From: Patescibacteria group bacterium
Lineage (GTDB): Bacteria > Patescibacteriota > SICC01
DNA: 64,000 nt
Direction of reading: 5' to 3'
Assembly: GCA_040902515.1 (NCBI GenBank)
Contig: JBBDXB010000006.1
Coordinates: 574,017-638,016, forward strand
Both the position numbers and the translations under genes were made by a program. Below the pieces are notes generated by a model. That model worked only from the letters and a program-made list of their open reading frames with translations, did not search any database and was not told the DNA's origin. Positions 4,517-40,074 of the stretch are shown here, one piece after another. Position 1 is the first letter of the stretch. Every line of letters starts with the position of its first letter.

Positions 4517-5992
4517 ATGGTTAAGCAATTTATGGACACCACGATCATTGGTCTCGGGCTCCTGCTGGCGATCACAGCCATCGTCGTACTGACCGTGCGG
4601 ATCCGGGCGTTGGCCCGGCAGGTCCGTTCCCGGGAGCTCGCGGTCAAGCGGGACCTCGGAAGAATCCGACAGATCGACCGAATGCTCCTGGCGAACCTGT
4701 CCCTCGGATACATCGCCCAAGAAGTGGCGAACGTCTTCGCCGACCACCGGGCCGTGCTCGGCGGTGCCGTCCAGCGGGCCAACCGCGACGGTACGCTCGA
4801 GGTACTGGCCGTCTCGGAGGAACTCAAGCGGATGGGAAACCGGGGGCTCGGCGTGCTGGCGCACAAGGTGCAGAGCGGCATCGAGCTGGAACGCAGCGGC
4901 TCCCTGATCGTCCGGGCCATCAACCAGCGGCAGATCATGGTGGGCGAACGGCTGGGTGACGTGGACGTGCCCGCGCTTACCCCCGGACAGGCCGGCAAGA
5001 TCCAGAAGCGTCTGGGCATCCGGGGCGTGGCGATTTATCCGGTGATGGCCAACGAGCGGGTCTACGGCGCGGTGACGTACTACCTGCGATCCCCATACGA
5101 GAGCCTGGGAGAGCGGGACAAGGAAACGCTCCAGGCGATGACCGACGGCGTGGCTGTCGCGATGGTGAACGCCAGCCTGCTCACGGAGATCGATGCGGTG
5201 AACCAGCGGCTGACCCAGGCCAACGCCGGTTTGAAACGGGCGGACGAGACCAAGGATGAGTTCGTCTCGATCGCCTCGCACCAGCTCCGCGGACCGCTCA
5301 CGGCGATCCGCGGCTACCTGGCGATGCTCGAGGATGGTGACTTCGGTGCGATTCCTGACCGCCAGCGTCCCGTCGTGGAGCAGATCTCCGAAAGCACGAA
5401 CGAGGTAATCAACATCCTGAACGACATGCTTTCCCTCTCGCGGATCAATGCCCGGCGCTTCGAGCTGACCCCCAGTCCCGTGCGGCTGGAGGACGTGGCC
5501 CGCGACGTCACCCGGGAATTCGAGTCGTTGGCCAAGAAGAAAGGACTGAAGCTCATCCTGGAGCTGCCGGACCAGACGATCGGCCAACTGAATCTCGACG
5601 GTCTCCGCATCCGCCAGGTCATCGTGAACTTCGTGGACAACGCGATCAAATACACGCAGAAGGGAACGGTGCGGGTCTCGATCGCCCAAGAAGGCGACGA
5701 AGCGGTCCTTCGTGTCCGGGATAGCGGTATCGGTATCTCGGCGGAAGACCGGCACAAGATGTTCACCAAGTTCTTCCGGGCGGATAACGCCCGGAACGTC
5801 CTGGCGTCCGGTACCGGCCTGGGCCTGTTCGTGGCCCGGCGGATCGTGGAGGCGCATGGCGGAAGCGTCATCCTGGAAAGCATTCTCGGCAAGGGAAGTA
5901 CGTTCGGGTTCCGCCTGCCGCTTCCCGCGGTACGCGGCGGCCACGGCGCCGCGTACCGTCGGTCTGCCCGGACCCCGGCCGTCGCGAGCTGA
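4517..5992 (+). CDS. Sensor histidine kinase (TM anchor, GAF-like sensor, HisKA, HATPase_c)
   Basis: TM helix IIGLGLLLAITAIVVLTV; H-box SIASHQLRGPLTAIRGYLAML; N box VNFVDNAIKYT; G1 DSGIGI; G2 GTGLGL. Start assigned to the ATG at 4517 (MVKQF) because the 4478 start would abut the divergent RR start. Confidence 0.8.
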   Translation: MVKQFMDTTIIGLGLLLAITAIVVLTVRIRALARQVRSRELAVKRDLGRIRQIDRMLLANLSLGYIAQEVANVFADHRAVLGGAVQRANRDGTLEVLAVSEELKRMGNRGLGVLAHKVQSGIELERSGSLIVRAINQRQIMVGERLGDVDVPALTPGQAGKIQKRLGIRGVAIYPVMANERVYGAVTYYLRSPYESLGERDKETLQAMTDGVAVAMVNASLLTEIDAVNQRLTQANAGLKRADETKDEFVSIASHQLRGPLTAIRGYLAMLEDGDFGAIPDRQRPVVEQISESTNEVINILNDMLSLSRINARRFELTPSPVRLEDVARDVTREFESLAKKKGLKLILELPDQTIGQLNLDGLRIRQVIVNFVDNAIKYTQKGTVRVSIAQEGDEAVLRVRDSGIGISAEDRHKMFTKFFRADNARNVLASGTGLGLFVARRIVEAHGGSVILESILGKGSTFGFRLPLPAVRGGHGAAYRRSARTPAVAS

Positions 5993-7189
5993 TTACTGCC
6001 CGATATCGAGCTTCTTGCCGCCCCGGGCGGCCGCTTTGCCTTCGGATGAACCGGATGCCGCCTCGTCTTTCGCCGCGGCCTTGGGAAGGCTGAGGACGAA
6101 CGCATTGCCGGTATTGGTGCCGGTCACCGAGAACCGGGCGCGATGCGCCTCGATGATCTGCTGGGCGATGTAGTAGCCGATACCCTCCTCGAAGCCCTGC
6201 GCGCCGACGTAATCGAAGACGTTCTGCTGCTGGTCGCGGGCCAGCGGCGCTCCCTGGTTCTCGATCCGGAACTCGACTTCGGGATCCGTTTCCTGGAGGT
6301 TGAACGAGACCTCGCTCTTCGGAGCGGATGTCCGGGCGGCGGTGTTGGCGATCATCGAAAGCAGACGCCCCACTTCCGTGACATCCACCTCGATCTCCGC
6401 GTCCGTGCCCGGTTTGCCGGCATTCAGCGTTCGTGACGATTCGGCGACCGTCGTGGCGAGCTTGTCGGTGGCCTGCGTGAATAGCTCTTTCGCGGCGATC
6501 CGCTGCTTGCGTACGGCGATCTTCTCCTCGGAGAGGGTCTCGATCCGGGCCATGTCCTCGATGATCCGGAGCAGCTTGTTGGCGCTGTCCAGGATCGTCT
6601 GTACTTTGCTGAGCGCATCCTTGGGGAGCTTCCCGGCGTCTCCGGAAAGGAGCAGGTCGGCGTAGCCTTTCATGGCGGTGATCGGTGCCCGGAGCTCGAA
6701 CGAGGAGAGGTTCACGAGGCGCTTTCGGAGTTCCTTCTCCGCCTGTTCGGTCGTGGCGTCGACCAGGACCACCACGTGGTACCCGGGCGGATAGGTCAGG
6801 GAGCGTTTGGCGGCGTAGACCGGCGTCAGCGTACCGTCCTGCGCCGTGACCGTACCCTGGCGCTTGCGTTCGGTCAGCTTGAGCGGCTTGCCGCCACCGT
6901 CTATCGAAAGCACCGTCTCGAGCGGCTGATGGAACGACGAGCGGCCTTCCCGGCCGGTCATCGTCGCAAACGACTGGTTGGCATACTCGACGGTGCCCTC
7001 CGGGTCGACCAGGGCCACGCCCTCGTCGAGGTGCTGTCCGAACTCTTCCCAGAGCTTGAAGCGGTCGGCGGCTTCCTCGGTGGTCTGCTTGATCGCGTCC
7101 TGGGCGCCGGCCTGTCGGAACAGGGAACGGATCAGCAACACGAGGGTTACGAGGAACGCGGTGGCGAAGATGAACGTAAGCGTATCCAC
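5993..7189 (-). CDS. PAS-domain histidine-kinase-like protein with degenerate catalytic motifs (phospho-acceptor His replaced by Phe); GTG start
   Basis: N-terminal TM, PAS-like region (LVDPEGTVEYANQSFATMTGRE). HisKA-like block reads NLSSFELRAPITAMKGYADLL (F where the conserved H of SHELRxPLT sits). ATPase N/G boxes are degenerate (MIANTAARTS; IENQGAPLA). Converges on the kinase at 4517-5992 with zero gap. Confidence 0.6.
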   Translation of the reverse strand: MDTLTFIFATAFLVTLVLLIRSLFRQAGAQDAIKQTTEEAADRFKLWEEFGQHLDEGVALVDPEGTVEYANQSFATMTGREGRSSFHQPLETVLSIDGGGKPLKLTERKRQGTVTAQDGTLTPVYAAKRSLTYPPGYHVVVLVDATTEQAEKELRKRLVNLSSFELRAPITAMKGYADLLLSGDAGKLPKDALSKVQTILDSANKLLRIIEDMARIETLSEEKIAVRKQRIAAKELFTQATDKLATTVAESSRTLNAGKPGTDAEIEVDVTEVGRLLSMIANTAARTSAPKSEVSFNLQETDPEVEFRIENQGAPLARDQQQNVFDYVGAQGFEEGIGYYIAQQIIEAHRARFSVTGTNTGNAFVLSLPKAAAKDEAASGSSEGKAAARGGKKLDIGQ

Positions 7190-7282
7190 GCCGCCAGTCT
7201 ACAGGCCGCGGGCGCGCGCCACTAGTTCGGTGCGGACCCGCTGCTTTGCGGTCGGAGCCATGCGTCCGGCACAATGGAGTGG

Positions 7283-7366
7283 GCCGGGGTGGCGGAACTG
7301 GCATACGCGACGGACTCAAAATCCGTTGCCCGCAAGGGCTTGTGGGTTCGAATCCCACCCCCGGCA
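7283..7366 (+). tRNA. tRNA-Leu (anticodon CAA), class II with long variable arm
   Basis: Acceptor stem gccgggg/ccccggc, U8, anticodon loop cuCAAaa, variable-arm hairpin gccc-gcaa-gggc, T-loop gggttcgaatccc, discriminator A. Confidence 0.8.
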
Positions 7367-7406
7367 CCGTTTGCCGCCGGTCATCCGGCGTCGTAGGGTT
7401 AAATCG

Positions 7407-8216
7407 ATGGAGTCGCCAGAGGCCACGTACCAAGCACCCGCCCGTCCGCCCCGGCGCGATCCGGCCGACGTGCTGTGGCGGTTCGCGAAGGGTATCTTCC
7501 CGCTGGTACTGATCGGCGTAGCCGTGTACCTGGTCTTCAACTTTCCGGCGCTTTGGACGCGTCTGACGTTCATGGTCAGCAGCCCGGAGAGCGCTTCGGC
7601 GGCGACGTTGCCGGAAGTGGTGCGGACCGGAACCTTGCCGGGAGGTGGTGATGGTGCCGGTCAGGCCGGCGTGCCCTGCGAAGGGAACATCCCATACGAC
7701 GGCAGCGGTAACCCGCGCGCCATCTGCGACAACTACATTTATATTCCGCGTATCCGGGTAGCCGCACCGATCGTCCGTCCCGCATCCACGTCGGAAGCGG
7801 TGATCAACGACGCGCTCCTTCGCGGCGTGATCAAGTATCCCGGCACCGCCGACCCCGGCGAGAAGGGTAACCTGTTCCTGACCGGACACAGCTCTTACTA
7901 CTGGTGGGTGGATACCGACTATCGTAATGTCTTCGCCCTGGTTCCCGAGCTTCGCGTCGGTGACGAGATCGTGGTGTATCACCGGGGCAAACGGTATCTC
8001 TACCGCACCCACCGGACCTTCGAAGTCGCCCCCACCCACACCGACGTCCTGAAACCGACCCGTGAGTCGATGGTGACGCTCTCGACCTGCGTGCCGGTCG
8101 GTACGAGCTATCGGCGGATCATCATCCGAGCCCGGCAGATCAGCCCCGATCCGGCCACGAACGTGGCTCCCGGCGAATCAGCCGAAACGCCCGCCCGGCT
8201 GCCGGGTGTCCGCTAG
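7407..8216 (+). CDS. Sortase family transpeptidase (membrane-anchored)
   Basis: N-terminal TM (LVLIGVAVYLVFNF); catalytic His in LFLTGHSSYY; TLSTC Cys motif; conserved Arg in RRIIIRA. Candidate enzyme for the LPVTG substrate at 1224-2927. Confidence 0.8.
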   Translation: MESPEATYQAPARPPRRDPADVLWRFAKGIFPLVLIGVAVYLVFNFPALWTRLTFMVSSPESASAATLPEVVRTGTLPGGGDGAGQAGVPCEGNIPYDGSGNPRAICDNYIYIPRIRVAAPIVRPASTSEAVINDALLRGVIKYPGTADPGEKGNLFLTGHSSYYWWVDTDYRNVFALVPELRVGDEIVVYHRGKRYLYRTHRTFEVAPTHTDVLKPTRESMVTLSTCVPVGTSYRRIIIRARQISPDPATNVAPGESAETPARLPGVR

Positions 8217-8227
8217 GGAAAGAGTCG

Positions 8228-9499
8228 TCAGGAACCCCTGAGGTTGATCCGGACCAACCGTCCGCTCGCGCGATCGGTGACAATGATCGTATCCAGTCCG
8301 AGGATCGTCGGCTCACTGCCGATTCCGTCGGCCACCACCTGATCGTTGGTGCCGTCCCGGGCGATCACGTGAAGATCGCCGCCGCTGCGGTAGAGTAGAT
8401 GCGACCCGTCAGGGAGGGGATAAATCCGCTCCGGCGGATCGGTCAGGCGGGTAACCAGCCGATCCTTGCCGGATTCAAGGCTCAGCAGATGGAGTTCGCT
8501 CGTGGTGCGGTAGGCGAGATAATGCCCTTCATGGTCCGGTGCTGCTTGGACGAGCCCCTGTACGAGATTCCGATGGCGTTCGTCCCGGAGCAGACCGAAG
8601 GAGCCGTCACGGTCTTCAGCCACTACCGCATCCGGACCTATCGTCGTGAGGGCAGTCACTGTCCGGGTCTCCGGTATCCGCCGCCCCGTCCCGTCCGGCC
8701 GGATCCAAGTGACACCCAGTGCATCGAGGACATACAGCCCATTCTCCGCCGCGGCCCAGGCCCGCGGGGCCACGGCCACCGTCCTTGCGTCCGTGCCATC
8801 CGTATCCTGTACCCTGATCCGGTTGTTCCTGACGGTAAGTACGCGGCCGTCGACGAAGCGGCCGCTCGTCCCGGGCAGGTCTCCCACGCGCGACCCTTCG
8901 CGGTCGAATACGAAAGTGCGCTCGTTGCCGCTGAGCAGGATCCGGTTTCCGCTCCCGGTGACCGCCAGCGAGCGCGGTTCGGCCAGCGTGGCCGGCAGGG
9001 CCGTGATCGTACGGGACGTGCCGGCTTCCAGGTCGACGGACTCCAGCCGGTACCGTTCGTTATGTCGGGTGATCGCCACCGCGTGCCCGCCGCCGGCCGA
9101 GACCGCTACACGGCGGACGGTGCCTTCGGTAAGGAACGTCCGTTCCGGCGATTCCGGAAAGAGCGTGATGGATTCGATCACCGCTTCGCCGGGATCAATC
9201 CGGACCGTCTTCCGCCATGGCAGCCGATCGTCTTTCCGGACTTCCACATCGTACGTTCCCGGCCGGAGCGATATCCGTGCGTCCGTCCGTTTGCCGTGCG
9301 GCTCACCGTCGATCAGGATTTGCGCGGGATCCGGGTCCGACTGCAGGGCGAGCAATCCGCGCTCGTAGAGCGCGCCGGAATCAAAGTCGATGGCGTACCC
9401 CCGGGTGACCAGCAGTGCGACCGTCGCTCCCGTCAAGAACAAGACGAGCGTGAGTATGTAGACCGCGAATCGGGGCCGATAACGATGACGGGGAGACAT
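8228..9499 (-). CDS. Membrane-anchored hypothetical protein with PEGA-like domain and beta-propeller-like repeats
   Basis: N-terminal TM (FAVYILTLVLFLTGATVALLV); PEGA-like ILIDGEPHGKRTDARISLRPGTYDVEV; repeated G/D/R-rich beta-strand segments. Confidence 0.5.
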   Translation of the reverse strand: MSPRHRYRPRFAVYILTLVLFLTGATVALLVTRGYAIDFDSGALYERGLLALQSDPDPAQILIDGEPHGKRTDARISLRPGTYDVEVRKDDRLPWRKTVRIDPGEAVIESITLFPESPERTFLTEGTVRRVAVSAGGGHAVAITRHNERYRLESVDLEAGTSRTITALPATLAEPRSLAVTGSGNRILLSGNERTFVFDREGSRVGDLPGTSGRFVDGRVLTVRNNRIRVQDTDGTDARTVAVAPRAWAAAENGLYVLDALGVTWIRPDGTGRRIPETRTVTALTTIGPDAVVAEDRDGSFGLLRDERHRNLVQGLVQAAPDHEGHYLAYRTTSELHLLSLESGKDRLVTRLTDPPERIYPLPDGSHLLYRSGGDLHVIARDGTNDQVVADGIGSEPTILGLDTIIVTDRASGRLVRINLRGS

Positions 9500-9553
9500 G
9501 CCTTACAGGATAGCTTATCCGGAACCATTCTCGTGAGCGGAAGTGTGCGGTAG

Positions 9554-10975
<1,422 letters not shown>

Positions 10976-10977
10976 CC

Positions 10978-11418
10978 ATGGCCAGAACGACCGAACTCAG
11001 CGTAGTCACGGCGACGGGGACGGTCGCGGAGGGTCCCGTGCTGTCGGTGACCATTCCCACGACCGACGGGGAGATCACGGTGCTGCCGGAACACGCGCCG
11101 ATCGTGTCGGTGATCCGGCCGGGCGTGATCACAACCCGCACCGAGAAGGACGAGCAGCACCTGGCGGTGTCCGGAGGATTCCTTCGGGTTTCCGGCGAAT
11201 CGGTGACCATCCTTGCCGATACCGCGGAACGCGCCGACGATATCGATCGCCAACGTGCGGAACAGGCCCGGAAACGCGCCGAGCAGGCGATGGCCGGGAA
11301 GCTCGAACGGGAAGAAGTCGCCGAGACGCAAGGGGAGCTCCAGAAGCACCTGGCCCGGCTCAGGGCCGTGGAATTGGCCGGCGCCCGCCGCCGCTCGCGG
11401 ACAAAGGATGCCCCATGA
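10978..11418 (+). CDS. atpC: F0F1 ATP synthase subunit epsilon
   Basis: Immediately follows atpD; size and beta-sandwich plus C-terminal helical sequence typical of AtpC. Confidence 0.85.
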   Translation: MARTTELSVVTATGTVAEGPVLSVTIPTTDGEITVLPEHAPIVSVIRPGVITTRTEKDEQHLAVSGGFLRVSGESVTILADTAERADDIDRQRAEQARKRAEQAMAGKLEREEVAETQGELQKHLARLRAVELAGARRRSRTKDAP

Positions 11419-12671
11419 CCAAGTTCATCATCGATGGTCCGTGCACGCTGCGAGGTACCACCAAAGTGGAAGGCAGCAAGAACGCCGCCCTGAAAATCCT
11501 GGCGGGAACCTTGTTGGCACATGAGCCGGTCACCCTGACGAACGTCCCGAAGATACGCGACGTGTCCGTCATGCTCGATATCCTCCGGTGCTTCGGCATG
11601 AAGATCACGGGCGCCCCGCCGCGCCTGAAGCTGGATCCCTCGAAGCTTCGTCCGGCGCCGATCCCGGACCATCTGTCACGGAGCCTGCGTGCCTCCATCG
11701 TGGTACTCGGTCCGGCCTTGGCACGGTTCGGCCGCGTGCGGGTGGCACATCCCGGGGGAGACGTGATCGGTCGTCGTCCGCTGGACACCCACTTTCGGGC
11801 GATCAAGGCACTCGGAGGGTCGGTTGAACAGACGAACTCCCACTATCGGATTACTGCCAAGCGCTTGCGGGGCAAGGAGATTTTCCTGGAGGAAGCCTCC
11901 GTCACCGCGACCGAGAACCTGATCATGGCCGCGGCCACGGCGAGGGGCACCACCCGTATCCACAACGCCGCTTCGGAACTGCATACCGCGGACCTGGCGA
12001 AATTCCTCACCACTCTCGGGGCGGACATCGAAGGGGCCGGCACCAACCTCGTGACCGTCCGTGGCGTGGAGCGTCTCGGCGGAGGCGTCCATGAGGTGCG
12101 GCCGGACGAGATCGAAGCCGCTACCCTGATGATCGCCGCGGCGCTGACGGACGGTGACGTGACGTTGACCGGCGTGGATCCGGAACGTTTCGGCATGATC
12201 CTGATCAAGCTGCGGGAAGCGGGCATCCGCTTCACCACGCATGGCGATCGCATCAGGGTCCATGGCCGCCAGCGGATCCGGCCGACTAACGTCAAGACCA
12301 ACATCTGGCCCGGATTCCCGACCGACTTACAGCCGCCGTTCACCGTGCTGATGACCCAGGCCAAGGGGATGAGCGTGATCCACGACTGGATGTACGAGGG
12401 CCGGCTCTTCTATACGGACAAGCTGGTCTCGATGGGAGCGAATATCACCATGGCCGACCCGCACCGGATCATCGTGCTCGGACCGACGCCGCTCGCAGCC
12501 AAGGAACTCGAAAGTCCGGATATCCGGGCCGGTATCAGCTTGTTGGTGGCGGCGCTGATCGCGAACGGCAAGACGACCATCGACCATGCGGAGTGGATCG
12601 AACGCGGATACGAACGCATCCCGGAACGGCTACGACGCCTCGGGGCGAAGATCAGGCGCGTTGCCGAGTAA
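11415..12671 (+). CDS. murA: UDP-N-acetylglucosamine 1-carboxyvinyltransferase
   Basis: Full-length EPSP-synthase-fold similarity (KNAALKILAG, RPLD, ...); start overlaps atpC stop (ATGA). Confidence 0.9.
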   Translation: MTKFIIDGPCTLRGTTKVEGSKNAALKILAGTLLAHEPVTLTNVPKIRDVSVMLDILRCFGMKITGAPPRLKLDPSKLRPAPIPDHLSRSLRASIVVLGPALARFGRVRVAHPGGDVIGRRPLDTHFRAIKALGGSVEQTNSHYRITAKRLRGKEIFLEEASVTATENLIMAAATARGTTRIHNAASELHTADLAKFLTTLGADIEGAGTNLVTVRGVERLGGGVHEVRPDEIEAATLMIAAALTDGDVTLTGVDPERFGMILIKLREAGIRFTTHGDRIRVHGRQRIRPTNVKTNIWPGFPTDLQPPFTVLMTQAKGMSVIHDWMYEGRLFYTDKLVSMGANITMADPHRIIVLGPTPLAAKELESPDIRAGISLLVAALIANGKTTIDHAEWIERGYERIPERLRRLGAKIRRVAE

Positions 12672-12740
12672 CAGGCCGCGTAGTAGGATGAGCGGTGCGC
12701 TCGGTTTTGCGCAAAATTATAGGTTGAATGTACGAACACG

Positions 12741-13751
12741 TTGTTCAGTAAACGGATCGGTATTGATTTAGGCACTTCGAACGTCCTCGTCTACGTCGAG
12801 GATAAGGGCGTGGTTATCAACGAACCGTCGGTCGTGGCGGTCTCGACGGAAGATAACCGGGTGATGGCGGTCGGCCAGGAAGCCAAAGAGATGGTCGGCC
12901 GGACTCCTGAACAAATCGTTGCACATCGTCCGCTGGCGGACGGCGTGATCGCCGATTACCGCGTGACCGAAGCGATGCTCCGGTACTTCATCAACAAGGC
13001 GGTAGGGAGCGTCCGCTTCTTCCGCCCCGACGTGATGGTCTGCGTGCCGGCCGGCGTGACCTCGACCGAGCGGCGCGCCGTGATCGACGCGACCACGGCG
13101 GCGGGCGCGAAGAACGCCTACATCATCCGGGAGCCGCTGGCGGCGGCGATCGGCGCGGATATTCCGATCGGTTCCGCCTCCGGCAACATGGTGATCGACA
13201 TCGGCGGCGGAACGTCCGAGGTCGCGGTGATCTCGCTCGGCGGTATCGTGGCGGTGGAATCCGCCCGTGTCGGCGGCGACAAGTTCGACCGGTCGATCGC
13301 GGCGTACGTGCGTCGGCGGCACAACCTGGCGATCGGCGACGTCACGTCCGAGCAGATCAAGATCCAGATCGGTTCGGCCATGACGTTGCCCGAAGGCGAG
13401 GAGATGAGCATGGAGGTGCGCGGCCGGGACATGGTCGCGGAGATGCCGAAGACGATCACCCTCAAGACGAACGAGGTGGTGCACGCGATCCAAAGCCAGC
13501 TCACGGAAGTGATCCAGGCAGTGAAGGGCGTACTCCAGCAGACGCCGCCGGAGCTATCCGCGGACGTGATCGACCGGGGAATGGTGATGGCGGGCGGTGG
13601 CTCGCTCCTCCGGAACATCGACCGGGTGATCACCCAGGCGACGAGCGTGCCGTGCCATGTGGCGGAAGATCCGCTGTTCTGCGTGGTGCGGGGAACCGGC
13701 GTGGCCGTCGAGAACCTCGATTCGTACAAACGGGCCGTCGCGGTACGGTGA
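12741..13751 (+). CDS. mreB: Rod shape-determining actin-like protein MreB
   Basis: IGIDLGTSN phosphate-1 motif, DIGGGT phosphate-2, full-length MreB similarity. Confidence 0.9.
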   Translation: MFSKRIGIDLGTSNVLVYVEDKGVVINEPSVVAVSTEDNRVMAVGQEAKEMVGRTPEQIVAHRPLADGVIADYRVTEAMLRYFINKAVGSVRFFRPDVMVCVPAGVTSTERRAVIDATTAAGAKNAYIIREPLAAAIGADIPIGSASGNMVIDIGGGTSEVAVISLGGIVAVESARVGGDKFDRSIAAYVRRRHNLAIGDVTSEQIKIQIGSAMTLPEGEEMSMEVRGRDMVAEMPKTITLKTNEVVHAIQSQLTEVIQAVKGVLQQTPPELSADVIDRGMVMAGGGSLLRNIDRVITQATSVPCHVAEDPLFCVVRGTGVAVENLDSYKRAVAVR

Positions 13752-13761
13752 CGTGGCCGAG

Positions 13762-14181
13762 ATGCCGGAACACCGCCCCGAACAGCGACCCGGGGTGGGC
13801 GTGGGCGTGTTCGTCATTCGCGACGGGAAAGTGCTGTTCGGTAAACGAAAGTCCGCGCATGGCGAGGGCACGTGGGCGCCGCCGGGCGGCAAGTTGGACA
13901 TGGGCGAGACCGTCGTTGATTGCGCGGCCCGGGAACTGAAGGAGGAGACCGGACTGACCGTTGTCCGAGCGGAAAGACTGCCGGTCTATACGGAAGACTT
14001 CTTCGAGGAACTGCATTTCATCACAACATACGTGCTGGCAGAAACCTCCGGCGAACCGAGCGTCATGGAGTCGGAAAAGTGCGAAGCATGGGGATGGTTT
14101 CCCTGGGATCGCAAGCCCGAGCCGCTCTTTTTGACTATCCGGAACCTGGACCGGCAAGGCTATCGTCCACCCGGCGCGTGA
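13762..14181 (+). CDS. NUDIX hydrolase
   Basis: Nudix box GGKLDMGETVVDCAARELKEETGL; start chosen at the ATG 11 nt after the mreB stop (the track's longer ORF overlaps mreB). Confidence 0.75.
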   Translation: MPEHRPEQRPGVGVGVFVIRDGKVLFGKRKSAHGEGTWAPPGGKLDMGETVVDCAARELKEETGLTVVRAERLPVYTEDFFEELHFITTYVLAETSGEPSVMESEKCEAWGWFPWDRKPEPLFLTIRNLDRQGYRPPGA

Positions 14182-33781: not shown

Positions 33782-35023
33782 ATGAGTGACCAACACCACA
33801 AAGCCAAGATCCGTAACGCCCAAGCGCGCCATCAGTCGCAGCTGTTCGGCGATGCCGCGCAGAAGCCGTCTTCCCAGGCGGCCGATACGCAGGCGCAGCA
33901 ACGTGCGGGCCACCTGACGGAAGCGGCCCGTGCTAAGGAACGGCGCCTCTCGCAAGCCGAAGAAGCGCGGTTGGCGGCACTGCGGAAACGTAACGAAGCG
34001 GCCCGGCGCAGCCATCAGACGCAGGTACCGTCGGGGCATGCTCCCGATGTGCCTGCCCAGGCGTCGCAGCCTCAATCGAAGCCGCAGGCACGCCCCGAAT
34101 CTCACGATACGCAGCCGTCTCAGCCGGCGATGCCCCGGCGCGCACCCGCTCATCCGTTACGTCAGGTAGCCGAACGGAGCGATATGGCCGCAGCGGCGCT
34201 TGAGAACATGGAGAAGCACTTGCGGGAGCAATCCCAGCAGCCCCCGGCGCCCCAACCGCCGCAGTCCCCACCGGCACCTGCTGAACCGCGGCCGCAACCA
34301 CAGCCACCGCGCCCGGCGCCGCCACAGCCACCGGAACCGGAACCGGAGCCAGAACAGCCTCCTCGGCCGCAACAACCGCCGCAACCGCAACCCCAGCCGG
34401 CCGCACCCCCGCCCCCCCAAGGCCGTGACCGGCCGGCCCCGTCCGGCCAGCCTCGCCCGGCCCGCCGGGCACCTAGTCCGGAGGAGCTCGACCGTCTGCT
34501 CCGGCAGATGGCAGCCCGCAGCCGCACCCGCCCCGGGGCCGGTGCGCAGCAGCCGCGCCCGCCGATGTCTCCGCGCGGCATGTCCGGCGCTCCCGAGGGG
34601 AATCCGGACGCTGCTCCCGTCGAAGCTCCGCCTCCGCCGCCCGAGCTGGTCGAGCAGGAAGCGCGACAGGTCGAGAAGTCCGCGGAAATCCTGAAAGAGC
34701 TCAAGGCCCGCGAAGTCCAGGCGCAGCAGGACATCACGCCGATTCCGCAGGCCGACCAGACCCGGGCCCGGGAAGAAGCCGTCGAGGCGAACCTCCCGAT
34801 CCGTACCCAGGCGAACTCGATCGCCTCGGGGCCGCTCCATGACGCGATCGAGCAGCTTCAGGTGGCGATGCGCGCCCATGACCCGGTCGGACAAGTCCAT
34901 GGGGCGAACTCCGTCCAGCGTCAGATGCCGCACCATCCGCTCTATGATCCCGAGGCTGCCAAACCGGACGCCGCGCCGTCGGACACGCCGCCGGGTGATG
35001 CACCGCAGGAGGGGAAGCAATGA
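33782..35023 (+). CDS. Pro/Gln-rich intrinsically disordered protein (413 aa), translationally coupled to the downstream VirD4-like ATPase
   Basis: Low-complexity PQPPQPQPQPAAPPPP tracts, no TM or signal peptide; stop overlaps the next start (ATGA at 35020). Confidence 0.6.
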   Translation: MSDQHHKAKIRNAQARHQSQLFGDAAQKPSSQAADTQAQQRAGHLTEAARAKERRLSQAEEARLAALRKRNEAARRSHQTQVPSGHAPDVPAQASQPQSKPQARPESHDTQPSQPAMPRRAPAHPLRQVAERSDMAAAALENMEKHLREQSQQPPAPQPPQSPPAPAEPRPQPQPPRPAPPQPPEPEPEPEQPPRPQQPPQPQPQPAAPPPPQGRDRPAPSGQPRPARRAPSPEELDRLLRQMAARSRTRPGAGAQQPRPPMSPRGMSGAPEGNPDAAPVEAPPPPPELVEQEARQVEKSAEILKELKAREVQAQQDITPIPQADQTRAREEAVEANLPIRTQANSIASGPLHDAIEQLQVAMRAHDPVGQVHGANSVQRQMPHHPLYDPEAAKPDAAPSDTPPGDAPQEGKQ

Positions 35024-37437
35024 ACCCCAACTTGCCGGCGCGTGCCCAGCGCATGCTCGACCAGCTCTCCAAGGGCGACAAGAAGGTCGTCAAGAAGCTG
35101 GAGCGGGTACTGCTGGAGGTCCGGGTGCCGCGGCACCGGCCGAAGGAAGGTGAGCGGCAGCAGGAACTCAAGGAGCAGCTCGGCGTGGCGGAGCAGCTCT
35201 TCGCCTCGCTCCATTCGATCTACCGCGGCGGCATGACTTCCCAGCTCTTCGAACAAGACGCGATCAGTTTCGAGGTCGCCGCGCCGGGCGGCGAGATCGG
35301 CTTCTTCGTAGGCGTGCCGCTGCATCTCCAGAGCCTGGTGGAGAAGCAGATTCACGCCTACTATCCGGACGCCGAGATCACCCCGGTGCCGCTCTACAAC
35401 ATATTCGCGCGGCAGGGCTTCGTGGCGGCGACCTCACTGGCGCAGCGGAAGCAAGCCCGCTATCCGATCAAGACCTATCAGGACTTCGAAGCCGACCCGA
35501 TGGCCGGCATCGTGGGATCGCTCGCCAAGCTCGGTCCCGACGAAGGCGCGGCAATCCAGATCATGATCGCTCCGACCGGTCACCGCTGGCGGAAACAAGC
35601 GCAGTCCTACGCCCGGCAGTACGCCCAGGGGAAGTCGGGTACCGGCGGCTCGGCCTCGGGCAAGGTCTTCGGCGGCATCTTCAAGTTCGGCGGCGACCTG
35701 CTCTCCGCGGCGACGACTGATCCCAAGCAGGATGCCCAGAAGCCGGCGCAGGGCTCCGACGAACCGCGGAAGCTGACCCAAATCGAGGAGCAGATGGTCG
35801 AGAAGATCGAGACCAAGGCCGGCTCGCCGGGCTTCGAGGTGGTGATCCGGATCGTTTCCGCCGCCGCCGACAAGGGTGTCGCGGAACTCAACCTCCAGCA
35901 CCTTACCCGGTCGTTCCAGCAGTACGACGCGCCCGACCTCAACGGGTTCAAGGAGATCGTCTCGCCGGTGGCCTCGCAGGCGCGGTTGGTCACCCGGTAC
36001 GTCTTCCGTGAGCTTTCCGGAGCGGGGAAGAAGATGATCCTCGGTCCGGCGGAGCTGGCCTCGATCTGGCACCCGCCGAGCGAGGGCATCGAGACGCCGC
36101 ACGTCCGCTGGCTCGGTGCCAAGACCGCCGCGCCGCCGAGCAACATGCCGCGCGACGGCCTGCTGCTCGGCTACAACCAGTACCGTGGCCAGGCCACCGA
36201 CGTCCGTCTCAAGGAAGACGACCGCCGCCGTCACATGTACGCCGTCGGTAAGACGGGCATGGGTAAGTCGGTGTTCCTCGAGAACATGATCCTGCAGGAC
36301 ATCCGTGCCGGCCGGGGCGTGGCGGTGATCGACCCGCACGGCGACCTCGCCGAGAAGGTCCTCAGCAAGGTTCCGCGCGAGCGGGCCGAGGACGTGGTCT
36401 ACTTCGACCCCGGCGACGCGGAACGGCCGATGGCCTTCAACATGCTCGACTATGCCACGCCGGAGCAGAAGGACTTCGTGGTACAGGAGACCGTGGGCAT
36501 CTTCTACAAGCTCTTCGGCGAAGAGATGATCGGGCCGAAGTTCGAGCACTGGACGCGGAACGGCATCCTGACCCTGATGGAGGACAAGGAGACCGGCGCG
36601 GTGCTCTTCGACCTGCCGCGGCTCTTCTCCGAGCGCGAGTTCGCCGCCCAGAAGATCGCCAAGGTGAAGGATCCGGTCGTGAAGTCCTTCTGGCAGCGTG
36701 AGATGGCCCAGACCTCCGACTTCCATAAGTCGGAGATGCTCGGCTACTTCATCTCCAAGTTCGGCCGGTTCATCACCAACGAGATGATGCGGAACATCAT
36801 CGGCCAACCGAAGTCCGCGTTCGACATCCGGCAGGTGATGGACGAGGGCAAGATCCTGATCATGAACCTCGGCAAGGGCCGGGTCGGCGAGATCAACTCA
36901 TCGCTGCTCGGCATGATCGCGGTCAGTAAGATCCAGATGGCGGCGATGAGCCGGGTGGACACGCCGGAGCACAAGCGGAAGGATTTCTACCTCTACGTCG
37001 ACGAGTTCCAGAACCTCACCAACGAGGAGTCGATCCAGTCGATCCTCTCCGAGGCGCGGAAGTACCGCCTGAACCTGACGATCGCCCACCAGTACATCGC
37101 CCAGCTCGACGAAAAGGTCCGCGACGCGGTGTTCGGGAACGTCGGGACGGCGGTGAGCTTCCGGGTCGGCGCGGACGATGCCGAGTACCTCGAGAAGCAG
37201 TTCGAGCCGGTGTTCGACGCCCACGACCTCCTGAACCTCGACAAAGCCAACTGCTACGCCAAGCTGGTGATCGACGGGCTCTCCACCCGGGCGTTCAACA
37301 TGAAGACCTACTCGCCGGAGCCGGTGACGCAGGAGGATGCCGAGATCGGCGAGGCGATCCGGAAGCTCTCGCGGCTCAAGTATGGACGCGACAAACAGCT
37401 GGTCGATTACGAGATCCGGATGCGGAGCAACCTGTGA
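35020..37437 (+). CDS. VirD4/TraG/TraD-like type IV secretion coupling-protein-type ATPase (805 aa) with N-terminal domain of unknown function
   Basis: Walker A VGKTGMGKSVFLENMIL, VIDPHGDL, Walker B/TraM-recognition-like FYLYVDEFQNL, C-terminal arginine-finger-like region. No VirB-type partners nearby. Confidence 0.65.
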   Translation: MNPNLPARAQRMLDQLSKGDKKVVKKLERVLLEVRVPRHRPKEGERQQELKEQLGVAEQLFASLHSIYRGGMTSQLFEQDAISFEVAAPGGEIGFFVGVPLHLQSLVEKQIHAYYPDAEITPVPLYNIFARQGFVAATSLAQRKQARYPIKTYQDFEADPMAGIVGSLAKLGPDEGAAIQIMIAPTGHRWRKQAQSYARQYAQGKSGTGGSASGKVFGGIFKFGGDLLSAATTDPKQDAQKPAQGSDEPRKLTQIEEQMVEKIETKAGSPGFEVVIRIVSAAADKGVAELNLQHLTRSFQQYDAPDLNGFKEIVSPVASQARLVTRYVFRELSGAGKKMILGPAELASIWHPPSEGIETPHVRWLGAKTAAPPSNMPRDGLLLGYNQYRGQATDVRLKEDDRRRHMYAVGKTGMGKSVFLENMILQDIRAGRGVAVIDPHGDLAEKVLSKVPRERAEDVVYFDPGDAERPMAFNMLDYATPEQKDFVVQETVGIFYKLFGEEMIGPKFEHWTRNGILTLMEDKETGAVLFDLPRLFSEREFAAQKIAKVKDPVVKSFWQREMAQTSDFHKSEMLGYFISKFGRFITNEMMRNIIGQPKSAFDIRQVMDEGKILIMNLGKGRVGEINSSLLGMIAVSKIQMAAMSRVDTPEHKRKDFYLYVDEFQNLTNEESIQSILSEARKYRLNLTIAHQYIAQLDEKVRDAVFGNVGTAVSFRVGADDAEYLEKQFEPVFDAHDLLNLDKANCYAKLVIDGLSTRAFNMKTYSPEPVTQEDAEIGEAIRKLSRLKYGRDKQLVDYEIRMRSNL

Positions 37438-37513
37438 CCGTCGCGCCCGAAGGACCGTTTATGGTGAGTATACCCGCATGACACGTACACGCCTAGGGGC
37501 TATAATACGGCGT

Positions 37514-37942
37514 ATGACTGACGTAAGAGATATGTACAAGTTCGTCCAGTACGTTGACTCGGACGAATACAATCCTGACCCAAAACAGTTCAAGGAACCG
37601 CACGAAGCTGAGCAATACTGTGCAAAGCACTACGCAGAGAAGTTGGGGATTACGCAGTACGAAGCTACGAAAATTCTTAACAATGCCACGATCGAGAGTC
37701 GCCAGTATGCAAAGGTAATCGGCGATGATCCGCGAGGGTACAAGCTGGAGATAACTGTTGGTCCTGGCAGAACTGGCGTTCACCTTATATCAAAGACGTT
37801 TGGAATTCCGTTAGGTTTGTGGGACGAAATCCAAAAAGAATACGACACTACTACGAGAACGATTGTGAGTCTTGTTGTGGGATTACTAGGCGGCGGCAGC
37901 TTCGCTACACTCGTCATCTTTGCTTTCTCGATATTCAACTAG
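37514..37942 (+). CDS. Hypothetical small protein with C-terminal TM helix, encoded in a lower-GC island
   Basis: ORF MTDVRDMYKFVQYVDSDEYNPDP...; C-terminal IVSLVVGLLGGGSFATLVIFAFSIF; TATAAT box 8 nt upstream of ATG (possible leaderless transcript); GC content clearly below the flanks. Confidence 0.5.
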   Translation: MTDVRDMYKFVQYVDSDEYNPDPKQFKEPHEAEQYCAKHYAEKLGITQYEATKILNNATIESRQYAKVIGDDPRGYKLEITVGPGRTGVHLISKTFGIPLGLWDEIQKEYDTTTRTIVSLVVGLLGGGSFATLVIFAFSIFN

Positions 37943-37945
37943 CGA

Positions 37946-38485
37946 ATGCCTAGCTCGGTTGGTACGATAACTCCGCTAATGCCTAAGAAGAAGCCAGCCA
38001 CAGAAAAAGAGAAGACTATCATCGGGGCGGTTATCCTTGTGGTGATCTTCGTAGTAGGTACAACGGCCTGCACAGGAGTAAGCAACGATGAAAGCGATAC
38101 GAACGACACGGCAAACAATCAGACCAGTGAACCTACTAAAGAACCCCAGAAAAACGAAGAGTCTTTAGTCGATAAGGTCGAGGCAGCATTGGATAAATTG
38201 GGCGAAGGTATGAAACGCGAGCTGGCTTCAACGAGTCCTGACGGCTATCAAGGCGACATAACCAGCGTTGAACCAGCCATAGGCGATGATACCGTTAAGG
38301 TTAATGTATCGACTCGCTTTGAGGACTCAGGCGATGGAATTGATGGTGGGCAAGGCATAGCTCGCAGGATATTCAGCAATATCTGTCTTGATGTTCCAGA
38401 GCTTGGAAGTCTGTATGTAGTAAGCGGCTCTGGATTGGAAAGTAAGTCCGTATATCGCAGTCAAATACCTGGCTGTAAGCAGTAG
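37946..38485 (+). CDS. Putative lipoprotein or secreted protein (179 aa) in the lower-GC island
   Basis: N-terminal hydrophobic segment IIGAVILVVIFVVGTTAC followed by Cys (lipobox-like), acidic/Thr-rich linker. Confidence 0.5.
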   Translation: MPSSVGTITPLMPKKKPATEKEKTIIGAVILVVIFVVGTTACTGVSNDESDTNDTANNQTSEPTKEPQKNEESLVDKVEAALDKLGEGMKRELASTSPDGYQGDITSVEPAIGDDTVKVNVSTRFEDSGDGIDGGQGIARRIFSNICLDVPELGSLYVVSGSGLESKSVYRSQIPGCKQ

Positions 38486-38528
38486 TATATGAGTGTGGCA
38501 GAAAAAGAATCCAACTTCGACAAGCTGA

Positions 38529-39374
38529 TTAAACTCGCTTCGCAGCCCGTTCAATCAGGACGGGGTAAACCAGCACGTTCCGGAGGTTATAGCGGAAAAC
38601 GAACTCGTCCACGTAAGTCTGCAGGTACTTCGGGGAAACGGCGTGGTACGTCCCGTTAATCGACCGCTTTAGCTGGCTCCAAAATCCCTCAATCGAGTTC
38701 GTGTGGATATTCCCTCGGACGTATTCCTTTTCCACGTGCTTGATGATTTTCCGAGATACGGTGGTGCGCCGGTAAATCGCGCTTTCGTCCGTGTGGAGTT
38801 CCGCGTCGTCTGACACGCTGGCCTTGATGAACGGCGTGGCGTTCGTGACGTTCGCCTCGGCGACCCACGCCTTTGCCTTGCCCTTTCGTTCGGTAGCACC
38901 GATCACCGCCGTCTTGTTCGTCCACTTGTTAGCTTGTCCTTTAATCCGTCCGCCGATAAAGGTTTCATCGGCTTCAACGATACCGTCCAGCTTGTCGGCG
39001 TTCTGTTCCATGAGAAGCCTGACTTGTTTGGCGATCCGCCATGCGGTCTTGTATGTGCAACCTAGCTGGCGTTCCAGTTCCTTAGCCGATACCCCGTTCT
39101 TTGAAGTCGAGAACAGGTAGATAGCGTAGAACCAGTTTTTTAGTGGCGTGGCTGACTTGTGGAAAATAGTACCGGCCAACGGGTGCAGCTGATGACCGCA
39201 GTGCATACAGGAATACGCCTTACGCCCTTTCAGCTTGAAGAACTTGGTATCCACGACCCCGCAGCCAGGGCAGGACTTTAATGCCCCGTAGCGGTTCTGA
39301 AACACCTCGTCCAAGCACGCCTCATCTGAGGGATACTGCTTGTTGAAGTCGGCAATGGTGAATCGCTGTTTCAT
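38529..39374 (-). CDS. IS1595-family transposase (N-terminal zinc-ribbon + DDE domain)
   Basis: CPGCGVVDTKFFKLKGRKAYSCMHCGHQ zinc ribbon; WYAIYLF...GVSAKELERQLGCTYKTAWR HTH; DDE region IVEADETFIGG...HTDESAIY...SIEGFWSQLKR characteristic of ISXO2/IS1595 transposases. Confidence 0.85.
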   Translation of the reverse strand: MKQRFTIADFNKQYPSDEACLDEVFQNRYGALKSCPGCGVVDTKFFKLKGRKAYSCMHCGHQLHPLAGTIFHKSATPLKNWFYAIYLFSTSKNGVSAKELERQLGCTYKTAWRIAKQVRLLMEQNADKLDGIVEADETFIGGRIKGQANKWTNKTAVIGATERKGKAKAWVAEANVTNATPFIKASVSDDAELHTDESAIYRRTTVSRKIIKHVEKEYVRGNIHTNSIEGFWSQLKRSINGTYHAVSPKYLQTYVDEFVFRYNLRNVLVYPVLIERAAKRV

Positions 39375-39433
39375 ACTCCCAGCCTACACGAACGCATACG
39401 TGTTGTCAAGGGATAGTTACCCCGTTTATCCCC

Positions 39434-39462
39434 TTGACTTACAGTAAAAATAATGCTATAGT
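39434..39462 (+). promoter_or_regulatory. Promoter TTGACT-N17-TATAGT sharing an aataatgctata core and ctcgattc downstream box with the promoter at 33736
   Basis: ttgact 39434-39439, 17-nt spacer, tatagt 39457-39462, ~42 nt upstream of ATG 39505; homology with 33736-33781 extends beyond the hexamers. Confidence 0.55.
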
Positions 39463-39504
39463 GACTCGTTACTTTGCTCGATTCCGACACTGAAACCAAC
39501 CACC

Positions 39505-40074
39505 ATGCCTGAAGATACGAAACTCCAGACCGTCCGGCAGATGCTGGAAACCGCCGAACAGAACCTGGCTACCGCCAAGCGGATGCTCGCGGAGCTGACC
39601 GGCGAGGCTCCGGCGGCCACGCAGGAGCGGACCGCCGATTTCGGCGTCAAGGCGGAGCGGCTCTCGGTCTCGTCCGAAGGACGGGTCATCGAAGGCGTCT
39701 TCGACGGGAAGGACATGATCGGTCCGGACAAGCGGAAGTATCCGGTACCCGCGAACTACGCCAGCAAGTCGAAGCTCGTGGCCGGCGACGTGCTCAAGCT
39801 CACCGTCACCGACGACGGCAGTTACATCTACAAGCAGATCGGTCCCGTGCCCCGGAAGAAGATGGTCGGCACGCTGACCCAGCAGGGGAATCAGTACCAG
39901 GTCGTGGCCGGCGGCAAGACCTTCAATGTCCTGCTCGCTTCCGTGACCTACTTCAAGGCGCAACCGGGCGACCAGGTCTCCGTGATCGTACCGGAGAGTC
40001 AGGACGCCGAGTGGGCGGCGGTCGACAACCTGATCGTGACTCCCGCGTCTTCCCAGACCGACTCCGACGCTTGA
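39505..40074 (+). CDS. Hypothetical protein (189 aa), N-terminal coiled-coil-like and C-terminal beta-rich region
   Basis: Clean ORF with high-GC codon usage; no motif recognised. Confidence 0.5.
   Translation: MPEDTKLQTVRQMLETAEQNLATAKRMLAELTGEAPAATQERTADFGVKAERLSVSSEGRVIEGVFDGKDMIGPDKRKYPVPANYASKSKLVAGDVLKLTVTDDGSYIYKQIGPVPRKKMVGTLTQQGNQYQVVAGGKTFNVLLASVTYFKAQPGDQVSVIVPESQDAEWAAVDNLIVTPASSQTDSDA

Follow-up and report, generated by a model that had tools for sequence, protein, structure and literature searches.

The window analysed here, a stretch of 64,000 nucleotides (64 kb) from a Saccharibacteria (Patescibacteria) genome of about 64% GC, contains a low-GC island which is very probably a single passenger-carrying insertion sequence (a transporter IS) of the IS1595 family, 1,959 bp long and located at positions 37463-39421. 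This element encloses two small genes, hereafter orfA and orfB, and a convergent transposase gene, tnp, between a tnp-distal and a tnp-proximal terminal inverted repeat (IRL and IRR, respectively). It inserted into the 104-nt spacer between a gene for a VirD4-like protein and the promoter of the conserved host gene p189, and the 8-bp target CCGTTTAT was duplicated. A sequence-only reading of the same DNA had proposed an island made of an IS1595 transposase and two cargo open reading frames (ORFs). Our results agree that the island is a single unit, but orfA does not appear to be incidental cargo, being instead a lineage-conserved companion.

Reconstruction of the insertion from empty sites

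Related loci were retrieved by using the VirD4-like protein as a query against species-representative genomes, the matches being metagenome-assembled genomes (MAGs) of Saccharibacteria/Patescibacteria. In the relative L004, whose VirD4-like protein shows 99% amino acid identity and whose flanks are 94% identical at the nucleotide level, the VirD4-like gene is followed by 104 nt, p189, dnaX, and dnaB, with nothing inserted, and the site reads ...GAAGGA-CCGTTTAT-CCCCTTGACTTACAG..., with a single CCGTTTAT. The alignment of this spacer with that of the window yields one 1,959-bp insertion, cargo included, with CCGTTTAT on both outer edges. The same gene order is found in L005, L006, and L010, where the spacer between the VirD4-like gene and p189 measures 100-200 nt and all three island genes are absent; the identity of the VirD4-like protein ranges from 85 to 99% among these four island-free relatives. 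The insertion postdates the split of the host from the L004 lineage. Regarding the expectations of the sequence-only reading, the 8-bp target duplication was found (two copies in the window, one in L004), the uninterrupted locus exists in four relatives, and the low-GC genes are thus not part of a conserved context. Its limits of 37440-39433 captured the island, whereas the exact ends had to be shifted by about 12-23 nt.

The composition of the island differs strongly from that of its surroundings. In sliding windows, the GC content falls from 0.62-0.68 before about 37450 to 0.47-0.55 at about 37500-39450, and returns to 0.61-0.65 beyond; at 1-kb resolution, this stretch is the GC minimum of the whole window. 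The GC content at third codon positions (GC3) is 0.54 in orfA, 0.47 in orfB, and 0.71 in tnp, compared with 0.83-0.91 in five adjoining host genes, and the related elements described below have a GC content of 45-51%. The low-GC island and its location next to a VirD4-like gene (35020-37437, identified by Pfam and NCBIfam matches as a VirD4/TraD-like coupling protein) were correctly recognized in the sequence-only reading. The same holds for its proposal of a recent horizontal acquisition: the empty-site alignment and the foreign composition demonstrate a recent acquisition from a lower-GC donor pool.

The gap between the VirD4-like gene and p189 is occupied by other material in two further relatives, namely 0.6 kb in L009 and 3.5 kb in L007 (VirD4-like protein 77% identical). 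In the latter, the insert encodes a 1,135-aa secreted protein (10452-13859) composed of repeated units of about 110 aa, and no IS features were found in it. The occupied gaps indicate that the content of this spacer varies within the clade. The gap was also considered as an insertion hotspot, an idea that we rejected since the L007 insert is this unrelated repeat protein.

The transposase and the terminal repeats

The product of tnp matches the full-length profile of DDE_Tnp_IS1595 (PF12762, 4.7e-34), Zn_ribbon_IS1595 (PF12760) at residues 15-62 (CPGC...CMHC; 2.5e-09, 37.4 bits against a cut-off of 25.4), and NCBIfam NF033547 (190 bits against a cut-off of 75), confirming the - strand IS1595/ISXO2-type transposase with zinc ribbon and DDE domain that had been read from the sequence. 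Among 16 transposases with 41-82% identity, D136, D196, and E229 are invariant, and K236, which follows E229, is conserved in at least 90%; given these invariant catalytic residues, the transposase looks intact. The element ends are GGTAACTAT and GGTGAGTAT, both following the pattern GGnnnnTAT. Together, a single zinc-ribbon/DDE transposase, repeats starting with GG, an 8-bp duplication, and enclosed unrelated genes identify the element as a transporter IS, a category that was established together with this family (Siguier, Gagnevin & Chandler 2009, Res Microbiol 160:232, as cited in PMC3129680). Direct repeats of 8 bp have been documented for the IS1595-family member ISApl4 (PMC12561309).

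Terminal inverted repeats, which had not been found by eye, do exist at both ends (Table 1). They are imperfect, matching at 17 of 26 ungapped positions, and have in common GGT..TAT..CC....CACGTA. The DNA similarity to relatives found through the transposase extends from exactly 39421 to the tnp stop codon, and IRL is homologous to the distal repeats of the elements L032 and L033, in which the repeat pairs match at 21/26 and 24/26 positions, respectively. The consensus pattern of the inverted repeats has one match in the window, at IRR (39397-39421), and neither a second IS copy nor a further IS end was found in these 64 kb. Likewise, there is no repeat-like sequence between orfB and tnp, where no internal match exceeds the background (15/28). 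The 9-mer previously noted in inverted orientation (ACGGGGTAA/TTACCCCGT, 38560-38568 and 39417-39425) was rejected as an inverted repeat and reflects chance: its first copy falls within the tnp gene, its second spans the boundary between the IS tip and the target duplication, and inverted matches of this size number dozens within this 2.4 kb.

Related elements were retrieved via the transposase and delimited by homologous repeats and an exact 8-bp duplication (Table 1). All seven of the relatives delimited in this way exceed the length of a bare IS and carry extra genes downstream of tnp, as do about a dozen further elements (2.0-3.8 kb) from a more distant, A/T-rich clade. The clade of window-type elements is named here after its repeat sequence, GGnnnnTATCCCTTGAC.

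Table 1. Features of the element and its insertion site in the window, and related elements delimited by repeats and target duplications.
Feature	Position	Strand	Length	Basis or 8-bp duplication
Left target-site duplication, CCGTTTAT	37455..37462	.	8 bp	L004 empty site with one copy
IRL, tnp-distal terminal inverted repeat, GGTGAGTATACCCGCATGACACGTACACG	37463..37491	+		Starts exactly at loss of similarity to the empty site
-10 box TATAAT, 7 nt upstream of the orfA ATG	37501..37506	+		Promoter scan
orfA, predicted winged helix and C-terminal transmembrane anchor	37514..37942	+	142 aa	Structure model, hydropathy
orfB, from Met12 (ORF open from 37946)	37979..38485	+	168 aa	Homologue alignment
tnp, IS1595-family transposase, CxxC...CxxC zinc ribbon, D136, D196, E229, K236	38529..39374	-	281 aa	Pfam/NCBIfam, alignment
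IRR, tnp-proximal terminal inverted repeat, inward GGTAACTATCCCTTGACAACACGTATGCG	39393..39421	-		Similarity to related IS starts exactly at 39421
Right target-site duplication, CCGTTTAT	39422..39429	.	8 bp	L004 empty site with one copy
Host p189 promoter, outside the element: -35 TTGACT 39434-39439, -10 TATAGT 39457-39462	39430..39462	+		Scan 10/12, 17-nt spacing, TG extension
L032 element			1,888 bp	GATTCATA
L033 element			1,446 bp	GAAAAATT
L038 element			2,261 bp	ATGCTGCC
L060 element			2,737 bp	AATTCATT
L062 element			2,065 bp	TCTGTTGA
L158 element			2,923 bp	TTATTTTA
L168 element			about 2.4 kb	TATGGTTG

L044, L045, L049, L052, L055, and L059 were left out of the delimited set because their ends could not be defined. 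In these loci, the tnp-proximal repeat keeps a CCTTGACA(A/G)CAAGTA core without the GG tip and directly abuts a conserved, outward-reading GGTGTTAnTnTTGTACTT (GGTGTTA...). The transposases P0117 and P0112, present on many contigs, were considered as representing many independent sites and rejected as such, each being one site recovered across many samples.

An exact search of the repeat core TATCCCTTGACAACANGTA in IMG/VR retrieved 53 copies on 46 contigs. Nearly all of them are preceded by GGnnnn, indicating that they are genuine ends, and many have a -10 box and a nearby ATG downstream. A separate observation concerns L177 (IMGVR_UViG_3300020577_007207, 5798-10063), a phage-like contig with four terminal repeats in direct orientation (GGTAACTATCCCTTGACAACAAGTA), 0.8-1.4 kb apart, heading genes whose products, judged by eye from their motifs, look like DNA methyltransferases in three cases and a PAPS-reductase-like protein in the fourth; beyond them lie an IS1595 transposase in convergent orientation and a single inverted repeat. 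The region resembles a series of cassettes, each headed by a repeat and bearing a promoter. Transposases 35-65% identical to that of the window were also observed on phage-like contigs in L034-L037 (Logan SRR290781xx), with capsid (Phage_capsid_4) and Cpn10 genes nearby, and in L125-L153 (IMG/VR), suggesting that the elements may travel on Patescibacteria phages. A target duplication was looked for in L034 and none was found.

Promoter elements in the repeats

A promoter scan of positions 37300-39700 recovered only two sigma-70-like sites, one joining IRL to orfA and the other being the p189 promoter, which is also present in the empty sites L004 and L006. In the IRL promoter (11/12), ATGACA (37478-37483) within the repeat is separated by 17 nt from TATAAT (37501-37506). 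A candidate tnp promoter can be read in IRR, with a TTGACA -35 box at 39404-39409 (+ strand coordinates), 17 nt, and TAGGCT at 39381-39386 as the candidate -10 box upstream of the tnp ATG.

The TATAAT box and a possibly leaderless orfA had already been proposed. The box is confirmed, 7 nt from the ATG, while the leaderless transcript is the best reading of a conserved spacing: TATA(A/C)T-N7-ATG recurs ahead of the orfA homologues in L033, L124, L168, and L214, and over-extended database ORFs of distant orfA homologues read 'xIIRRM' across this segment. Judging from this arrangement, the element's own IRL promoter probably drives both orfA and orfB, yielding a leaderless transcript.

The passenger genes orfA and orfB

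Pfam, NCBIfam, PADLOC, and PHROGs gave nothing usable for either orfA or orfB. A word-based homologue search with orfA matched only itself, and an exhaustive phmmer search of 1.8 billion representative proteins retrieved 11 homologues of 139-168 aa with 31-41% identity. These proteins have in common an N-terminal MAEMKDMYK..YVDS, a KG.HLIAKK...GLWDE.LK.Y motif, and a hydrophobic C-terminus. In orfA, the hydrophobic segment covers residues 117-135 (Kyte-Doolittle 2.19), in agreement with the C-terminal transmembrane anchor suggested previously for the first small protein. The predicted model shows a three-helix bundle followed by a beta-hairpin wing (winged helix-turn-helix), and orfA is thus predicted to be a membrane-tethered winged-helix protein.

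The genomic context of orfA is constant. In the five retrievable contexts (the window, L033, L168, L214, and L124), an orfA homologue lies directly inside the tnp-distal IS1595 repeat. The transposases of the orfA-bearing elements are as low as 45% identical to that of the window, and the recurrence of this distal position despite such divergence indicates that orfA accompanies this sub-lineage as a conserved gene. Between orfA and tnp lies a variable slot: it is empty in L033, where orfA is the only cargo, and contains orfB in the window, a NYN-domain gene in L168 (order orfA, NYN-domain gene, tnp), and two genes in L214 (order orfA, 137-aa gene, 266-aa gene, tnp). In L124 (about 501-1165), a unit of about 660 bp contains a 45-aa ORF and an orfA homologue between two family-type repeats; it is flanked by a TTACATA duplication and lacks a transposase. 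As a tentative suggestion, orfA might regulate the repeat promoters or transposition, or contribute to maintenance.

The alignment of homologues places the likely start of orfB at Met12 (37979) rather than at 37946. The 16 homologues of orfB (53-79% identity) have a conserved C-terminal domain of about 110 aa with two invariant cysteines (C136 and C166 in the 168-aa form), preceded by a low-complexity linker and, at the N-terminus, by a variable membrane anchor. The AlphaFold2 (AF2) model has a predicted local distance difference test (pLDDT) score of 85-96 over residues 71-179, and its predicted fold is a generic small alpha/beta domain. The protein had been described as lipoprotein-like and secreted. 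Its N-terminal hydrophobic segment is indeed present and ends in ...VVGTTAC, with a T at position -3, compared with the lipobox [LVI][ASTVI][GAS]C. The two closest homologues read LTAC and ITAC, and the other 13, which lack the cysteine, look like plain membrane anchors. A cysteine right behind the hydrophobic segment is therefore limited to the three closest members, making the status of orfB as a lipoprotein uncertain.

The orfB cassette is also found in L038 (84.5% nucleotide identity over 524 nt), a second IS1595 transporter IS, which occupies another position on the chromosome of a host relative, although the transposases of the two elements are only 46% identical at the protein level. 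In L040-L043, orfB homologues (209 aa, gene 5001-5630) have a divergent HTH_3 repressor on one side and a SHOCT/DUF4429 gene on the other, and a large serine recombinase is encoded about 1.5-1.7 kb downstream of them, which makes this a different class of mobile element. Since these contexts are mobile throughout, orfB appears to be a cassette exchanged among mobile elements. A role in the envelope or in exclusion is plausible but unproven.

Target choice at the right junction

An imperfect hairpin had been reported at the right side of the island (39405-39436). The palindrome is real (39405-39438), but it is not a structure of the element itself: its GTCAAGGGATA half derives from IRR and its TATCCCCTTGAC half from the host p189 promoter, unchanged in the empty sites, so that it represents a junction between the IS end and the target. 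Outward from this junction, the 8-nt duplication and 2 nt precede CCTTGAC; inward from the repeat tip, 10 nt precede the same CCTTGAC. These equal 10-nt offsets place the element tip-to-tip against a pseudo-end.

The same register occurs on one flank of L038 (CCTTGAC), L033 (TCTTGACAAC), and L032 (CATTGAC), and partially in L158 (ACTTGAA). When offsets 0-39 were scanned in the seven delimited elements, the summed best-flank score for CCTTGAC was 37/49 at offset 10, compared with 11-20 at the other 39 offsets. At least 6/7 at offset 10 was reached by four of the seven elements (P about 2e-9 uncorrected, 7e-8 corrected for 40 offsets). In the window, CCTTGAC occurs 8 times against 7.9 expected. 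These results suggest that recognition of pseudo-ends by the transposase biases the choice of insertion site. The p189 promoter was left intact by the insertion.

Alternative interpretations

The island could, in principle, result from two events, a bare IS1595 of about 1 kb having landed beside a separately acquired low-GC orfA/orfB pair. The higher GC3 of tnp relative to both passengers hints at different histories, and the orfB cassette common to an IS with a 46%-identical transposase indicates that modules recombine. Nevertheless, the empty site differs from the window by a single indel with the duplicated 8-mer at its outer edges, the orfB/tnp boundary shows only background matches, and the relatives have the same repeat-to-repeat layout with their cargo inside exact duplications. 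The single indel and this layout indicate that module exchange inside elements predates the present insertion, and two events are very unlikely. An island ancestral to this Saccharibacteria clade and deleted in the relatives is a slightly weaker proposition still. Only a handful of related genomes are available and the spacer is variable, as seen from the material in L007 and L009, yet four relatives show a clean spacer with a single target 8-mer region, and precise excision restoring one copy in each of them is improbable; moreover, the GC and GC3 of the island are far from host values, and the L007 insert is unrelated. Finally, since the host genome is a MAG and the composition changes abruptly, a lower-GC contig of another organism might have been joined into it during assembly. 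However, the same locus is found in the NCBI MAG GCA_040881485.1 and in the independent Logan assembly of run SRR27977660, with identical junctions in the three assemblies (including the window), and these junctions carry the signature of transposition, namely terminal repeats together with a duplicated 8-bp sequence of which the relatives have one copy. A chimera is thus hardly credible.

A different question is whether the cargo constitutes an anti-phage or superinfection-exclusion module, with orfB as an exclusion lipoprotein and orfA as a membrane sensor or effector, the element spreading by protecting its host. In the closest relative, L032 (620-2507, transposase 82% identical), a trypsin-like peptidase of 318 aa constitutes the sole cargo and has matches to the PADLOC candidate defence gene PDC-S45 (1.5e-18) and to LmuA (8e-06); among the passengers of other family members are orphan DNA methyltransferases, a NYN-domain protein, and a gene identified by eye as DUF3800-like. 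The orfB homologues of the serine-recombinase island, with their HTH_3 and SHOCT neighbours, occupy a position typical of prophage exclusion genes. In contrast, orfA has no PADLOC match and orfB a single weak one (PD-T4-6, E 0.016), the weak PHROG matches of orfB are confined to N-terminal residues 3-86, which include the hydrophobic low-complexity segment, its fold is generic, and the host has no experimental system. The passengers of L158, L062, L053, and L060 gave no informative matches in Pfam and PADLOC. A defence function of this cargo is therefore rather doubtful.

Two other types of mobile element were considered and rejected. A composite transposon does not fit a single tnp gene and a single IS copy, with no flanking IS pair in the window. 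An integrase island or prophage remnant does not fit either, as the island ORFs contain no recombinase domain, no tRNA gene is targeted (the nearest are at 7283 and 50731), and the ends consist of inverted repeats and an 8-bp duplication.

Several points weigh against parts of our interpretation. The assignment to the ISNwi1/ISNwi1+ subgroup, with ends of the form ggnnatTAT and a DDEK motif, is tentative; the ends of the element and E229 followed by K236 are compatible with it. The exact element is known from one copy, which offers no instance of orfA, orfB, and tnp moving together more than once, and the degenerate centre of IRL (17/26 to IRR) makes present-day mobility uncertain. Leaderless expression is deduced from spacing alone, and an in-frame ATG within IRL (37478) opens the orfA frame 12 codons early as an alternative start, in which case expression from this repeat-internal codon could depend on outside transcription. 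An in-frame ATG inside IRL is also observed in L033 and L032, and two codons between TATAAT and the orfA ATG differ only synonymously between the window and L033. The confidence of the orfA model is moderate (mean pLDDT 72). As for targeting, replication in 44 independent single flanks from IMG/VR was weak, with two at 6/7 or more at offset 9 and two at 5/7 or more at offset 10, and a plain preference for A/T-rich 8-mers near promoters in GC-rich genomes could explain part of the signal. We conclude that the pseudo-end bias is real, although not obligatory, and given this weak replication the targeting claim is kept as a lead.

Comparison with known systems

The window element resembles known transporter IS of the IS1595 family in its single zinc-ribbon and DDE(K) transposase, its 8-bp duplication, its passengers enclosed by repeats, and its size of about 2 kb. 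It differs from them in its Saccharibacteria/Patescibacteria host, in the recurrent orfA companion at the distal repeat with a variable middle slot, and in the promoter elements of both repeats and the possible bias towards pseudo-ends at -35 regions. In the literature library searched, a single paper mentions both Saccharibacteria and IS1595, and this is a Francisella study that does not describe such an element. Passenger-carrying IS1595 elements as such are an already described kind, while the companion gene, the cargo slot, the promoter-bearing repeats, and the targeting go beyond the ordinary and are offered as leads, derived from small samples or models.

With composite and unit transposons (Tn10-type, Tn3-type), the element has in common that a transposase moves accessory genes between defined ends and duplicates its target. 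Unlike the Tn3 type, it has neither a resolvase/res site, nor 38-bp repeats, nor a 5-bp duplication. The transposase-less, repeat-bounded cassette of L124 is similar to the mobile insertion cassettes (MICs) such as IS231-MIC231 of Bacillus cereus (as cited in PMC3129680), and would be mobilised in trans. In contrast to MICs, the window element encodes its own transposase and is autonomous, the MIC-like L124 being a derivative within the same lineage.

Insertion at repeat-like targets is familiar from IS911. In IS30, insertion is likewise targeted to repeats or repeat-like sequences (PMC9333248), and the likeness to IS30-type targeting lies in an inserted end placed tip-to-tip with a repeat-like target, producing a palindromic junction, as also found in L032, L033, and L038. 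However, the window element belongs to another IS family, the likeness comprises a 7-nt core and a few downstream bases, and the targeting is suggested here by sequence comparison.

Proposed mechanism

From family knowledge, the intact zinc-ribbon/DDE transposase would bind both repeats, move everything between them, and cut the 8-bp target in a staggered manner. In the observed layout (IRL, orfA, orfB, convergent tnp, IRR), each repeat carries an inward sigma-70-type promoter element, with the IRR TTGACA as the candidate for tnp and the IRL ATGACA-17-TATAAT as that for orfA-orfB. The membrane-tethered winged-helix protein orfA may bind DNA and serve the element through regulation or maintenance, and orfB could be an exported, disulphide-stabilised envelope protein of the surface or exclusion type carried by mobile elements; both roles are weakly indicated. 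In this insertion, the element landed tip-to-tip against the -35 region of the p189 promoter, which copies the CCTTGAC core of its own repeat.

A broader and more speculative possibility, which we hold tentatively, is that these elements form a distinct Patescibacteria-centred IS1595 sub-lineage functioning as a gene-delivery chassis, with portable repeat promoters, an orfA companion, a swappable slot, and safe-haven targeting. Consensus -35 boxes within both repeats, followed by a -10 box and a leaderless ATG, may provide the promoters; the tail-anchored winged-helix orfA may guard the distal end and survive in transposase-less cassettes; envelope proteins, nucleases, and defence-like proteases may be exchanged between orfA and tnp; and CCTTGAC may guide the transposase to pseudo-ends at host -35 boxes, sparing the promoters. 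Arrays of the L177 type may be products of the same end-targeting.

Other observations in the window

Upstream of the VirD4-like gene, and overlapping it by 4 nt, lies an ORF for a 413-aa protein (33782-35023) whose centre is extremely Pro/Gln/Ala-rich, with a local GC of up to 0.78. It gave no family matches, and it is partially conserved in relatives, its C-terminal part being 47-97% identical. At 1001-2000, the GC content shows a further, less pronounced dip (0.57 compared with about 0.64).

Implications

For annotation, orfA and orfB are genes of a mobile element and do not belong to the adjoining type IV secretion locus. More generally, Saccharibacteria and other Patescibacteria have tiny genomes in which gene gain is poorly documented, and here a single gain event is reconstructed to the base, including the donor-type element, the target, its duplication, and the empty site. 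If true, targeting of pseudo-ends at -35 regions by elements with promoter-bearing repeats would account for the insertion of such elements into gene-dense genomes without lethal effects on the host, and the promoter-bearing repeats would represent possible natural promoter-plus-cargo cassettes for organisms without genetic tools. The event shows that small genes for envelope and DNA-binding proteins are moved among Saccharibacteria/Patescibacteria by passenger-carrying IS1595 elements and, given the relatives on phage-like contigs, probably also among their phages.

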